From a virus (Duplodnaviria > Heunggongvirae > Uroviricota > Caudoviricetes): DNA of 48,288 bases. The stretch's first letter is position 1, and the number at the start of each line of letters is the position of its first letter. The position numbers were made by a program. The DNA lies in the IMG/VR virus record IMGVR_UViG_2923307698_000006; one strand, written 5' to 3'. Below are positions 27,001 to 36,000 of the stretch, in pieces.

Positions 27001-30000
27001 TCCTTCGACAACTTCATGCCCGGAACGACAGGTTTACCATCCACCAGGATGGCACCGCGGCAGATGGTCCAGATACCCGCACCATCACGGTATGCCGTGG
27101 TGTGGTTACCTTCCTTTTCATCCAGAAACTGGTCGAGGATTTCAGGCGCAGACGCCCCTGCACCAATCAGCGCCAGAATGGCAGCCGACAGGCCGTATCT
27201 GATTTTTGCGTTCATGGATATTTATCAGGATTTATCGATTTCAAATCCCTGGATATGTTAAGTCTTCAGGCCAGCGGTGGAGTCTTCAGAGAACCCGTAA
27301 TTATTCCCGGTAGTTTTCCTCTGTAGGTTATCAACACATCCTGCGCCTCTAAAATGACGGGGCGCTTTTCCGGCAACGGACCATCCCCTTCACATAACCC
27401 GGCAGCAACATCCATGAAAAACTGCTTCGCCTGCTTTTTCGCCTCAGCTTCGTAAAACTCCAGCGTGGCACCTTCAGTACGGTCAAGACTAATCGCCACA
27501 TCTGGCAACAACAGTGACGGATACCCACCAATTTCCAGTGCCACAGTAACAGTAATCTTATCCGGGTAATTATTTATCCCTTTAACACCCAGTTCGTATT
27601 TTTTCTTCATCGCTTTACTCCCCCCGCGCCGCCTTACGACGGTCCTCTCTGATTTTGAAATACAGGTTAGTCAGATACGTCAGCAGGCCAAACAGCAGAC
27701 TCCCCAGCACACCTATCGCCACCCACTGGGACGGAGAGACTTTGTCCAGCAGCTGCAGTAACCAGTATCCCGTCCCCACCGCTGACGTGGTGTATGACAC
27801 ACCCGTTGTGATTTTTTCCATCTGATGTATGTCTCCGTCACCGCCGACAGAAAATGAAAGTAAAGGAAAACAAAAAGCCGCCAGTGTCGCCCACTGACGG
27901 CCAACGCCGGGAGCCGTGATTATGGCATTCAGGCTCTGCTAAAAATGCCAGATAACATTCCGGCTCCCCCCCCTGATTCAGGTTATAAATGACACAATAT
28001 CTTGACAACACCCATCACTGTCTGTCAGAAAATGTACTGCCAGATATAAGTATCATGTGAAACCCAACTATCCTTCTTAGCCAGTACTTCTCCGACGAAA
28101 GTCAGTACTGGCTGTTTTTTTATTATGCTGCCGGTGCATTTATCTCCAGCACCAGACTTTCTATCTCAACGCCATACGCTGCATTTTTTGTAACATCCGT
28201 CAGCGTCAGCACATTCAGTCCCAGTGTCAGACTGTCTTTTATAACCTGGAATGCCGGGCCAGCCACTCCATTCAGTTTCGGAGTAACCGTGGCACTGCCG
28301 GCGGTGAACACCAGCTCCAGCGTCTGCCAGTCGTTACCGTAATCGCCGAACTCCCCCAGCTTCGTGTTTCCGGCTTTCCTGTGATGCATCAGATTCACTC
28401 TGCCGTCAGTGGTCTGAGTGAAGTACGACATCAGGAACGGATTACCGGTACCCGTCATCGCCACACCATCAGGAACGGGAGCATCCGTATACAGATAAAT
28501 CCCCAGCCCGAACTGATTGTTGGTCAGTGCGCCTGACAGGCGGAACTTACAGGTCAGTCTGCCGCCCTGTGTCAGCAGGGTAATTGCGTCATCCACCGGA
28601 TGCGTCAGGGACCAGGTTTTATTGCTCTGCTTGGTGATCTTAAATACACCATCTGACAACTGAATTCCGCCATCCTTAATGCTCCAGCCCTGCGCAGCAG
28701 CCTCTCCGGCTGCCGGCAGCAGGGAGATTGTGCGAACGGACGTATCTGCAGACGGACCCGATGGCGTGTTGCCGCCGGGCGAGGGTTTGATTTCCGGTGC
28801 CTTACCACTGATGAAGGCGGAGGTGCGCCCGGCTGCGTTCAGAATAGCGGTTGCCAGACGATCCGGAATAATGCTCCTGCGCGCCCATGAACTGAAATGT
28901 GTCGGGCGGTTTGATGATACCTGGTTTCCATTCGTTCTCGATGCCGCACCGTAATATCCTGATGCCGGAATATCCGGATCTTCTGCCGGCGCGTTAGTGG
29001 CGGTATTGACGCCGTTACCGTCTGTCATGAAGGGCACAAAATAAACGCCCTCACTCTCCCTGTTTTTATACCCGCCGTACACGGTGTCGTACTGGGTAGC
29101 GTATGTATTTTTCCAGTAATACGTCGTGTCACCACAAATCCACGGCACATCTGCAGCACTGCCACCATGGCACTGCGCGTTAAACACGGAGAGGTCAGCA
29201 CGAAACTGTGCCAGCATGGCTGTAAACAGCGCAGGTTGCTGTGCGTGGGTGGCGGCGCTCATGTCAAACTCTCCCTGCATCCAGCACACCGCCAGCAACA
29301 CATTTTTCGGGTTCTTCTGTAATGCAGCTTTAGTGCGCGCAATCAGGTCCTGATATAACGGTTTACCCACACCCCAGCGTGCCGAATCCTGGCTGGCCCC
29401 CGTGTCCGCACTGAATGTCCCCTCAGCGCCCTGGGTGAATGCAGAACCACCACGACAGCATGGTACCAGCAGGATCCCCGCGTTATTCGGGATATACGGA
29501 AGCAGTTTTTTGGCAATATGTAAGCCCTGGCCGACACAGCCGTACTGCCCTTTGCTCAGGTCTGCCTTCGGATGATTCAGCGTACTCATATCCTGCACAT
29601 CATGCAGGCAGTGGTCGGCCGGAATAATATCGTTATATCTGCAGGCAGCCCCACCCGGCGTCACTGTACTGCGGCGCGCCAGCTGTTTAATGCGCGGATC
29701 CGGAGCATCGTATGAATCCGGAAGCGGAAGCCCTTCACCGTAAGCCATTGCATTGGACTGCCCGGCCAGTACGATGACGTAGTACCAATCCGGCTCAGTT
29801 GCACCACTGACCACCACATCACCTTCTGCTGCAATCGCCTGCATCAGGGTATAAGGGGTTATGGCCACCGGACTACCAAACGGCTGCCAGCCCTCTTTCA
29901 GTTTGTGTGTCAGCTTTTCCGCAAGGTCTGACGGCGACGCCGCCCTGACAACATCATAATGTTTAAATGTCATTATTCCTCCCGGCCGGGATAGTGTATT

Positions 30001-33000: not shown

Positions 33001-36000
33001 CTTCCACTGGTTATCCCAGCCTTCGGGCTTCACTTTAAAGTATGGCGGGTCTGTGACTATCAGATCGACAGAGTTTTCCGGTAAGGTCTGGATAAATTCC
33101 AGGCAATCAGCGTTGATTAATTCACAACTGGATATTTTTACAGTATTGACCATAGATCAGTAAGCACTTCTCTGATAGGCTCGTTCTGCTTTTGCGCAAA
33201 GCAGATGGGCCTGAGGTTTGCTTGTGACCCCAACGCATGAGCAGATGGCTGGCAGGTGCCGCTAACACCCACCAGCCGCCCATTACCACAAATAAAAAAA
33301 ACCTTCACTGCGGAAGGCGTCTGTAACAACCGAACTGATAATCTGCCAGACCCGCCATAACAAGCTGGGTCAGTATTAACTGGCAACGTTCGCGTGAAAG
33401 GTAAGTATTCTGCGCAATTTCCCCGACGGTCGCCGGTTCGGTGACGCTTAATTCATTAAACACCACTCTGGCGGTTTCGGTCATATCCTGCTGTTTTAGC
33501 ATGTCTTTTTCCCTTTTCTGGTTAACGTGACATACCAATAACTCTTGTCGAAAAAGCCAGCAAGCTGAAAGACCGGTATTCACAACCACCAGCGCGTTTA
33601 CTGTACTGGCGTGATTTCAGTCATAAAAAAACCCGCCTGGCGACGGGTGTAAAAAATCTTCTAACGTCAGGCATAAAACGCCCATCGTTAGGGCAATTTT
33701 ACCACAGATTCGGGAAAAATCAACAAAGCTATCTGGTCACCTTTTTCAGTTGTTGTTCTGCCCATGCTTCTTCAATATCAAACTGCACCACCAGCGTATC
33801 GTAAAAACGTTTAACTGTTTTTTTCCATGTATCAAGAGATATGGCATCGGTTACATTACATATGGCATTAAATGCCTCCGTTGAAGGTAATCTTTCATAG
33901 CCACGACCACCACAACGCTGGCAGTCTCTGATAACAGGCATACCACGTTTTACCGACTCTTCACGATGAATGGCAACACCGCGCCCACGACAATCTTTAC
34001 AGGCGGTGGAAACCTCCCCCTTCCCTCCACACTCCGGACAGGCAACTTTTACCACCTCCCTGACTTTTTTCCATTCCTCCCAGTAAGACGGATACACGCC
34101 TTTTGTGCACTTTGCCCACACTGGCGGCTTACCATCCGGATACTGGATCTTGTTTGTAAAAACCTCGCTTTCAATAAATTTTTTTCCGTGACAACAGGGG
34201 CACTGTTTTTTGCTCGCCGCGCTACGGGCATAATCTTCAAACGCATACGAAGCCATAATACGCATCACTGCCGGTTTTATTTCTGCCGGGAGTTTTCTTA
34301 ACGCCGCCACGCGATCACACCGACTGAGTGCATATTCTGTCAGCAATTCTGTTGCCCGCTCTCTGTCATTCATACTAATGCCCATTTTCCCAAGGAACGC
34401 AGAAAACCCCATCTCAGCCCAATTCTGTGTCATGCCCTGCGCAGCCATCACATCAGTGATACTCAGCGTATCTTTCGACGTTGAGGCCGATGCATCAGTC
34501 AGGCCGGGGGATTTTGGGGAGTAGTATTTCGGTAAATCTTCCAGTTTCATTTTTTGACCTGCCCTTCAAGCATTATGGGGTAAATCTTCACCCCCAGACG
34601 TCCACCAGATACTGGCTGAGCACGAACGATATTGATTTCATCAAACTGCTCATCGTCCATTAGCAACCCCGCATGCGTCAGCGCATCCAGCGGCGCTTTC
34701 AGAATATTGTCCAAGTCACGGCGGCGCTTATCCGGTGGCTCGGCAATAATCTTTATCGCCAGCCTTCCGGACAGGCTTAATTTCAGCCGCTGCTGGCGAA
34801 CAATAAGCGCCACAGCCCGGCGATAACGCTTTCCCTCCTCCGAGATAAAATATGTGCTGCCACGGCGTCGCCAGTAAGTGTTCACCGTCGGCGGGTAAGG
34901 TAAAACCAAATCTATGAGCATCAGTCACCTCTTTTACCCAAGCACGCCAGTTGCAAAGGCGTGATCAAGAAAACGAAAAATTAAATCAACCTGAGAACCA
35001 TGCTTTTCTTCGAACGCCAGCGGATCCGCATGAAGCTCGTTGTGATGCTCCCGACACAGCGGTAGCGTGAAAATATCGTGAGATTTTGTCCCCATTCCGC
35101 CCTGACCATGACCAATCAGGTGATGGGGATCGTCGGCTGGCTTACCACAACACGCACACGGCTGTGTCTTCACCCAGCGAGTGTATTTCTCGTTAACCCA
35201 GCGGCGACGTTTAGGTCGTTTCATGAAAGATTCCGGAGACTCAGGATCAACGGCAATGCTGACCACCGTCTTTTCCTGTGGTGGGTTCTGTTGCTGGTGG
35301 GCGTGAGGCAGCGGCGCAAGATTTTTTGTGCGCTGTTTCAGTATGCTGGTGGCGGTCTGCTCTCCCGGTACGATGTCGCTTTCACGGTACATGGAGCGGA
35401 TTTTTTCCGCACGCAACCCCAGCGAACGACGTAATACCGCTTCCGGTAGCGCGTCCGCCACCTGATTGCGGACCGCCCACCAGGATAATTCAGCCAGAGA
35501 TAATTCACGCTCCTGCGTACCGCTTATTGCGTGACCGATGACGTCAATCATCCATGCTGACAGGTTTTGATGAGCAAGTTGCTCGAGTGATTCGGATGTC
35601 TGGTCACGCAGCTGGTTGTCGCAGTGCCAGCACAACACCATTGCGCCGGTACCGTAACGGTGAATGACGGTTTCGCTGTGATGATAATCACCGTGTAGCC
35701 ACTGGCAGGATTTCACGTGACGTAATAACCAGTCAGACAGTGCACCAGCGCCACCCGCAGCACGGCTCACCCGCTCATCGCTGAAAAATGGCAGTAGTGA
35801 TTTATCTTCCGCCAGCGGCTGGTGAACGGCAGGTACAACCCCGGACGGCAGAGCTCGCATGCTTTTTGGTTCCGGCTCCACCAGTATTCTGCCGTTATGG
35901 AATGCTGACATTGATTCACGGCCTGGCTTAACGATAACCAGACCGAGTTCCGGTACCAGAACAGGTCGAAGTAATACCCGCACATTACCTCCAGATCCGT

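Follow-up and report, generated by a model that had tools for sequence, protein, structure and literature searches.

The interval at 29974-33660 of the virus record IMGVR_UViG_2923307698_000006 (Duplodnaviria; Heunggongvirae; Uroviricota; Caudoviricetes), whose whole stretch of 48,288 nucleotides we call the window, is the pR' moron slot of a lambdoid E. coli prophage. Based on the unequal distribution of its genes, we consider it probable (roughly 0.8) that the slot is a recombination hot spot holding three independent protein modules and not one system. The first module comprises a gene for a 65-residue winged-helix protein, a conserved leader and a DNA methyltransferase gene of the M.EcoGII family; the second is a RelE-type toxin with an Xre-type antitoxin; the third is a TerB-domain protein coupled to a DUF3927 peptide, a pair resembling TciA and TciB of phage P1. 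Seen as a whole, the block is an uncommon version, with a toxin pair, of a mosaic region that is well known. An initial annotation had singled it out as the part of the window most likely to hold an undescribed accessory function, and had proposed profile searches as a check. That expectation was not supported: all of its proteins belong to families already catalogued, M.EcoGII, to which the methyltransferase is orthologous, has been characterised, and the block has already been deposited within phage PPyecE_EH1910 (LC567835.1).

The genes were counted by megablast against 5426 complete E. coli genomes. The winged-helix gene with the methyltransferase was found in 2823 of them, TerB with DUF3927 in 1145 (median of 4 copies per genome), the 984-bp segment that bears the toxin pair in 11, and the whole block in nine. 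The initial annotation had asked whether the genes co-occur as a unit; these unequal counts, together with the separate occurrences of the modules described below, indicate that they do not. Q genes of three different families precede the block, and the DNA shared with prophages of other Q types ends on the right at a tR'-like terminator, where homology stops (33636-33652). The interval is 100% identical to its copy in E. coli FORC_042. PPyecE_EH1910 has the whole 3.7 kb block at 96.1% identity, in the same order and with its genes annotated; it differs in having another Q protein (126 aa), other replication genes and an intact methyltransferase. PADLOC found no multi-gene defence system among the block proteins: only generic methyltransferase and helix-turn-helix (HTH) models matched, the toxin and the DUF3927 peptide had no match, and the TerB protein had one weak match (E 0.0028).

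The site 3' of the methyltransferase is a hot spot of swapping. Among 80 IMG/VR loci, 60 carry tRNA genes of several kinds there and four carry the toxin pair; other occupants are IS421 and, in Klebsiella, HicAB, and in E. coli strain D3 and in Salmonella the holin gene follows the methyltransferase directly. In the Klebsiella locus (L021:5427-6089) the HicA/HicB pair lies on the opposite strand, at the position that the RelE/Xre pair has in the window. Here a 984-bp segment stands in for a 336-bp tRNA-Ile/tRNA-Arg segment; besides the toxin pair it supplies an alternative 3' end for the methyltransferase gene, its right junction lying inside the last ~12 methyltransferase codons. The claim that the toxin pair has its own terminator did not survive the blastn comparison, since that terminator (31140..31119) lies within backbone common to the tRNA-bearing prophages.

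The same mosaic is known from Shiga toxin (Stx) phages. The region downstream of the Q-antiterminated pR' is a moron insertion site, in which convergent small RNAs separate the moron genes from a conserved phage open reading frame (ORF) (Tree et al. 2014, PMC4104026). The window shares its backbone with the pR' moron regions of enterohaemorrhagic E. coli, Stx and non-Stx alike: Q, pR'/tR', the 65-aa gene, the methyltransferase, a variable segment, convergent small RNAs, nanS-p and holin. In the Stx2a phage WGPS2 (NC_049941) the order is Q, a 65-aa gene, a methyltransferase gene, ileZ-argN-argO, stx2AB, nanS-p (esterase) and holin, in line with the earlier statement that this slot carries stx in Stx phages. 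The WGPS2-type 65-aa gene and methyltransferase are ~86% identical in DNA to those of the window. Judged by this order, the window has the toxin pair where WGPS2 has its tRNA genes, and TerB/DUF3927 (TciA/TciB) where WGPS2 has stx.

Table 1. Features of the moron slot and its flanks (window positions; basis of each assignment in the last column).
Feature	Position	Strand	Basis
DUF968 protein	34934-35983	-	Pfam-level match
RusA	34547-34921	-	Pfam-level match
Q antiterminator, 273 aa	33729-34550	-	PF03589
pR'-like late promoter, TTGATT / 16-nt spacer / TG-TAAAAT	33696..33723	-	promoter scan; directly 3' of the Q stop codon
Strong tR'-like intrinsic terminator, ACCCGTCGCCAGGCGGGT then T7	33631..33648	-	terminator scan
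Winged-helix protein, 65 aa	33305..33502	-	phrog_331; 'TrmB family' in RefSeq
Terminator-like hairpin overlapping the winged-helix stop codon	33301..33318	-	terminator scan
Conserved ~150-nt leader between winged-helix gene and methyltransferase	33154..33304	-	alignments, RNAalifold
M.EcoGII-family beta-class N6-adenine DNA methyltransferase, frameshifted	32087..33153	-	PF01555, E 2e-41
Swapped-in segment, 984 bp	31140..32123	-	breakpoints by blastn vs L002 and L005
RelE/ParE-superfamily toxin, 86 aa	31719..31979	-	PF05016, E 1.4e-7, 32.4 bits (cut-off 23)
Antitoxin, 124 aa, C-terminal Xre-type HTH	31284..31658	-	HTH_3, E 3.7e-12
Intrinsic terminator of the shared backbone	31119..31140	-	terminator scan; 3' of tRNA-Arg in other prophages
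TciA-like TerB-domain protein, 143 aa	30545..30976	-	PF05099, E 1.8e-16, 60.9 bits
TciB-like DUF3927 peptide, 55 aa	30381..30548	-	PF13064, 60.3 bits; phrog_1470
STnc100-family small RNA, late strand	30184..30376	-	Rfam RF02076, 142.5 bits vs gathering score 47
Terminator at the end of STnc100	30213..30196	-	terminator scan
AgvB anti-GcvB small RNA	30121..30182	+	Rfam RF02702, 96.5 bits vs gathering score 56
Terminator-like hairpin just upstream of nanS-p	30075..30096	-	terminator scan
nanS-p	28123-29973	-	profile match
Holin	27615-27821	-	NCBI annotation of the FORC_042 copy
YdfR	27266-27610	-	annotation

All genes across 27.2-36 kb lie on the minus strand (Table 1). A Q gene, a promoter, a nearby intrinsic terminator and then lysis genes on the same strand follow one another as in a pR'-tR' late operon, and the position of the promoter suggests that it would be Q-dependent. 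Terminator-like sites are enriched between 27500 and 34600 (18 observed vs 6.7 +/- 2.2 expected), which suits an antiterminated operon. Several parts of the initial annotation were thereby upheld. Gene order and the promoter and terminator scans confirmed a cargo slot between Q/tR' and nanS-p with the lysis genes, and ORFs and profile matches placed all five of its protein items on the minus strand where it had put them. The small winged-helix protein (supported by a structural model and a weak TrmB match), the TerB-domain protein overlapping the next ORF by GTGA (PF05099; 4 nt) and the possible two-helix membrane peptide (two hydrophobic segments; PF13064) likewise stood.

The methyltransferase has the beta-class motif order, with DPPY (motif IV) at residues 35-38 near the N-terminus and FFMGSGS (FxGxG, motif I) at about 309-315 near the C-terminus. 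Of 331 positions aligned with M.EcoGII, 285 are identical (86%); for M.EcoGII the machine-read text of PMC11551740 Table S1 was used, a slightly noisy source. Motif order, this identity and a prophage location are shared with M.EcoGII, and the two differ at the C-terminus: the window copy is frameshifted at residue 331, and the intact alleles of its lineage have 354 aa with a different C-terminal tail, compared with 349 aa. The block holds no nuclease gene, the neighbours of the methyltransferase being the winged-helix gene and the toxin pair. An adjacent restriction endonuclease gene was found in none of the methyltransferase contexts examined, and the enzyme is thus an orphan. The earlier description of a beta-class methyltransferase without a partner nuclease was correct in class (PF01555, motifs) and in the lack of a nuclease; it had missed that the window copy is broken.

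Alignment with three relatives locates a TT insertion at 32162-32163 (GGCGTT[TT]GAG), which shifts the frame after residue 330; the open frame then ends at 32128, in ...RAIGVLSLRLNGLSRR and a stop. The break falls just after motif I, and similarity to solved beta-class methyltransferases runs to about residue 340-343, so the window copy lacks an intact frame through the C-terminal region that binds S-adenosylmethionine (AdoMet; motifs II and III). In class I methyltransferases an acidic residue binding the AdoMet ribose would, we presume, lie at about the position of the break. With the conserved C-terminal portion of its AdoMet-binding region lost to the insertion, the window copy probably has no activity. 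Programmed frameshifting was considered and rejected: no slippery motif was visible by eye at the insertion, and near-identical strains simply do not have the two bases. Strain 14EC017 (99.9% identical) and two relatives at 94-96% identity have intact alleles of 354 aa.

M.EcoGII, an enzyme encoded by a prophage, methylates adenine irrespective of context; it is silent in the lysogen, and its expression is toxic (PMC5778455; PMC12707154). The accepted hypothesis that late, Q-dependent expression would shield progeny DNA from restriction fits, by analogy, the position of the gene; a literature search for induction of this methyltransferase returned nothing useful. An anti-restriction function, as proposed for the block in the initial annotation, is therefore reasonable for the methyltransferase as an M.EcoGII ortholog, but the frameshift means that the likeliest anti-restriction gene of the block is probably dead in the window.

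The 65-aa protein is confidently modelled as a minimal winged helix. The ORF was taken as 65 aa from the start in the NCBI annotation, the longest ORF there having 94 aa. Its only Pfam match is a weak one to TrmB. The AlphaFold2 model has three helices and a beta hairpin with a mean predicted local distance difference test (pLDDT) score of 92.4. Searched with this model, Foldseek gave no match at E <= 0.001 and, beyond that threshold, only generic domains (MarR, IclR, N-terminal domains of O-methyltransferases, MotA). A likeness to the methyl-adenine-sensing winged helix of DpnI was unsupported by this search. The gene lies 5' of the methyltransferase in E. coli, Klebsiella, Salmonella and Buttiauxella, down to 53% protein identity, and accompanies it in 77 of the 80 IMG/VR loci. 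The terminator-like hairpin at its stop codon has a U-tract in the E. coli versions only, and two of its stem pairs show compensatory changes.

Between the two genes lies a leader that is conserved, with long invariant blocks, across the same four genera, and that stood upstream of the methyltransferase in the loci fetched as 54 distinct sequences. In the RNAalifold prediction a three-tier domain comes after a long hairpin, and the outer helix of this domain (GGUCACAAGC / GCUUAcUGAUC) pairs the 11 nt directly 5' of the methyltransferase AUG; no Shine-Dalgarno sequence is visible before this AUG in the leader alignments. Across 16 sequences 97.3% of the cells are paired, compared with 29-42% when the partner strand is slid, and the minimum free energy has a z-score of -2.55 against shuffled sequence, that is, the leader is the more stable. 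No Rfam family matched the leader, and a search with lax filters gave noise only. Reading the leader as a small ORF was rejected, as the mini-ORF MGGWWVL stops after 7, 16, 32 or 55 codons depending on the locus and 1-nt indels separate the loci. Two IMG/VR contigs (L042, L053) have a natural 51-nt deletion that takes out the middle of the leader. The conserved leader and its fold seem to be undescribed, and the leader would likely act as a brake on the toxic methyltransferase, the structural evidence being suggestive and not conclusive.

A bolder proposal, which we hold only tentatively, is that the winged-helix gene, the leader and the methyltransferase form a regulated cassette, in which the leader RNA hides the start site and either the winged-helix protein or the passage of Q-modified polymerase releases it, so that a toxic methyltransferase is made only late. 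The gene order is kept in all four genera, with the same ~150-nt spacing in Klebsiella, Salmonella and Buttiauxella; the near-constant company of the winged-helix gene, the invariant leader blocks, the helix before an AUG lacking a visible Shine-Dalgarno sequence and the high pairing score point the same way, as does the retention of pairing while the winged-helix protein has diverged to 53% identity. However, only three of 37 pairs show compensatory change, most being invariant, and the conservation could thus reflect sites at the DNA level. The fold of the small protein is generic, a leader deletion exists in nature, and M.EcoGII is active when cloned alone (PMC5778455), which makes the winged-helix protein dispensable for catalysis.

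It is also possible, though in our judgement doubtful, that the frameshift is an assembly artefact and that the methyltransferase is intact in the real organism. The indel lies in a run of T; FORC_042 is the sole genome among the nine with the full block whose alignment spans the 3687 nt of the interval, whereas H2-H4 (99.9% identical) align over 3685 nt; and the gene of 14EC017 is annotated as intact. Conversely, homopolymer errors more typically insert one nucleotide than two, and the window and FORC_042, where NCBI annotates the methyltransferase as a frameshifted pseudogene, agree exactly, albeit perhaps as one source.

The second module is predicted from its sequence to be a type II toxin-antitoxin system of the RelE/ParE superfamily. 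The toxin matches phrog_1213, 'RelE-like toxin' (E 7e-21), and weakly RelE3 (PDB 3bpq), and its C-terminal KRRSTTTY resembles what we take to be the Arg...Tyr catalytic end of RelE. The antitoxin matches phrog_7241 over its full length; its N-terminal segment has a faint RelB/Phd-like similarity, PF18506 reaching the Pfam threshold only in a 62%-identical homolog. The pair had earlier been called a toxin-first RelE/HigB pair with an HTH antitoxin. The order, the RelE assignment (PF05016) and the HTH (HTH_3) stand, and toxin-first order with an Xre-type HTH antitoxin and a RelE/ParE-superfamily toxin is indeed a likeness to HigBA. The HigB label does not stand, as no HigB profile in Pfam matches the toxin, for which PF05016 is the sole Pfam match at E <= 0.01; the additional N-terminal segment of the antitoxin also sets the pair apart from HigBA and RelBE. 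A direct repeat is also present: GTGTAAAGYTGTT, read on the sense strand, stands in two copies at a spacing of 70 nt (32023-32044 and 32093-32114). One copy closely precedes the toxin gene, the other falls within the 3' end of the methyltransferase gene, and an operator role is conceivable.

In E. coli, Salmonella and Photorhabdus alike, the 86-aa toxin has the 124-aa HTH protein as its neighbour. In Salmonella prophages a 71%-identical pair lies directly 3' of Q without the methyltransferase or TerB, and in Photorhabdus the pair lies in chromosomal islands. Relatives with HTH partners were found in Pasteurella, Pseudomonas and Burkholderia phage records. A scan of contigs of species-representative genomes with the antitoxin returned two unrelated Firmicutes HTH proteins only, the pair not being in that set. 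It has to be considered whether the pair serves mainly in phage warfare, by abortive infection of superinfecting phages or by shutting off the host when late read-through enters the toxin-first operon, and not mainly in prophage addiction. We regard this as rather unlikely. This family does turn up repeatedly behind Q in prophages of E. coli and of Salmonella, a different pair (HicAB) occupies the same site in Klebsiella, and PHROGs files the toxin under its moron category; but the toxin has no PADLOC match, the pair also occurs in non-phage chromosomal islands, and no experimental data on the matter were found.

The third module consists of two genes that PHROGs and GenBank name after TciA and TciB of phage P1, in whose record the Tci name was assigned 'by homology'. 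The TerB protein matches phrog_632 over its full length and the TerB structure PDB 2jxu (E 9e-8), and is 41-52% identical to TciA in P1 records. The GTG start of the DUF3927 gene overlaps the TerB stop codon by 4 nt (GTGA), and hydropathy analysis gives the peptide two hydrophobic segments, at about residues 7-21 and 29-47. Identity of the peptide is 59% with gp28 of phage Pollock and 51% with P1 TciB, whereas its TerB partner reaches only 28.5% with the Pollock counterpart. A motif DFTS...LADG...WP..K is common to DUF3927/TciB peptides (window 30381-30548; L110:1345-1506; L007:5426-5590; L109:1330-1509). P1, the virulent N4-like phage Pollock and the Erwinia jumbo phage ChrisDB all have the two genes side by side with little space between them.

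The window shares with P1 a TerB protein followed by a tightly coupled DUF3927 peptide of about 55 aa (41% identity to TciA of the reference record, 51% to TciB), and in P1 too tRNA genes and a methyltransferase gene (dmt, just upstream) lie nearby. P1 tciA/tciB stand downstream of the C1-controlled ban promoters and are followed by tciC and ban, whereas the window pair lies, as we infer, in a Q-dependent late operon without tciC. tRNA genes adjoin tciA/tciB in three unrelated phage types: lambdoid prophages (L002:6172-6424), P1 (L007:4116-5776) and an Erwinia jumbo phage (L109:286-754). TciA/TciB are non-essential in P1 (PMC10695390), and our literature search on DUF3927/TciB function found no functional study. 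The TerB protein weakly matches DjlA and DUF533, in which TerB domains are joined to membrane anchors, and such joins make a membrane-associated complex the likeliest form of the pair. TciA/TciB could be a widespread phage membrane module, of which the 55-aa peptide is the better-conserved half.

Two small RNAs that the initial annotation had not listed also lie inside the interval: STnc100 on the late strand, and AgvB, which is convergent with both the late operon and STnc100. AgvB retains the CACAACA GcvB-target (R1) motif and has its own terminator at 30157-30176; its anti-GcvB function has been described (PMC4104026). Both AgvB and STnc100/PasD occupy the position between moron genes and esterase gene that has been published for them (PMC4104026; bioRxiv 10.64898/2026.05.13.724894), with nothing notable differing. 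The nanS-p/holin spacer holds two terminator-like hairpins (27876-27964, minus strand); a 2026 preprint assigns the small RNAs PasA/PasC to this spacer. Elsewhere in the window are a hokD/sok type I toxin-antitoxin locus (36431-36755, minus strand; sok at 114 bits), an isrK-like match under the gathering score (36341-36422), STnc490 (14259-14382, minus strand, 146 bits) and DicF (43160-43211, plus strand, 77 bits).

Taken together, the anatomy suggests how the slot may work. On induction, Q-modified RNA polymerase would start at pR' and read through tR' and the internal terminators, and the late products would include the winged-helix protein, the methyltransferase, TciA/TciB, STnc100, nanS-p and the lysis genes. 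An intact first module would methylate adenine in progeny DNA with little sequence preference, shielding that DNA from many restriction systems in the next host; in the lysogen the methyltransferase would be silent because it is toxic. The toxin pair, which would have replaced tRNA genes by recombination, most likely has its own promoter in the lysogen and may be a self-regulated addiction or defence module. TciA and TciB would be translationally coupled, likely as a membrane-associated pair acting in lytic growth, given that the pair is also present in virulent phages. AgvB would be transcribed convergently in the lysogen and sponge the host small RNA GcvB.

Several points weigh against this picture. 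Q-dependence, a promoter of the toxin pair's own and read-through of the internal terminators are all deduced from the anatomy, and the promoter scan upstream of the toxin gene found no site at the consensus threshold. Non-specific methylation has been demonstrated for M.EcoGII only and is ascribed to the 86%-identical ortholog by analogy; the TT insertion could be an assembly error common to FORC_042; and the likely lytic-growth role of TciA/TciB is drawn solely from where the pair occurs. Independent distribution is, moreover, compatible with functional interplay where the modules meet. Very improbable, nonetheless, is a single co-operating defence or anti-defence island of all five genes, for instance with the toxin pair or TerB sensing or buffering what the methyltransferase does. 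In its favour, nine genomes and one phage record have the whole block colinear at 94-100% identity, it travels behind two different Q types, and within E. coli the toxin pair always adjoins the methyltransferase. Against it, the module counts differ more than 100-fold, in Salmonella and Photorhabdus the toxin pair is accompanied by neither methyltransferase nor TerB, TerB/DUF3927 occurs apart from the other modules in P1, N4-like and jumbo phages, PADLOC detects no multi-gene defence system, and the block persists in the window with a broken methyltransferase.

In summary, the slot is best read as a site where independent modules meet, and the block as a whole matters little, being another case of free cargo swapping in the post-Q slot of the Shiga toxin genes. 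Its parts are of wider interest. TciA/TciB, common to temperate and virulent phages and named by homology alone, are a tractable subject. The M.EcoGII-type methylase finds wide use in the laboratory, and about half of the complete E. coli genomes carry a close relative of it. The winged-helix gene and leader could explain the silencing of this toxic, promiscuous methylase; if the regulated cassette proves true, it would explain the silence of the M.EcoGII family in about half of E. coli genomes.

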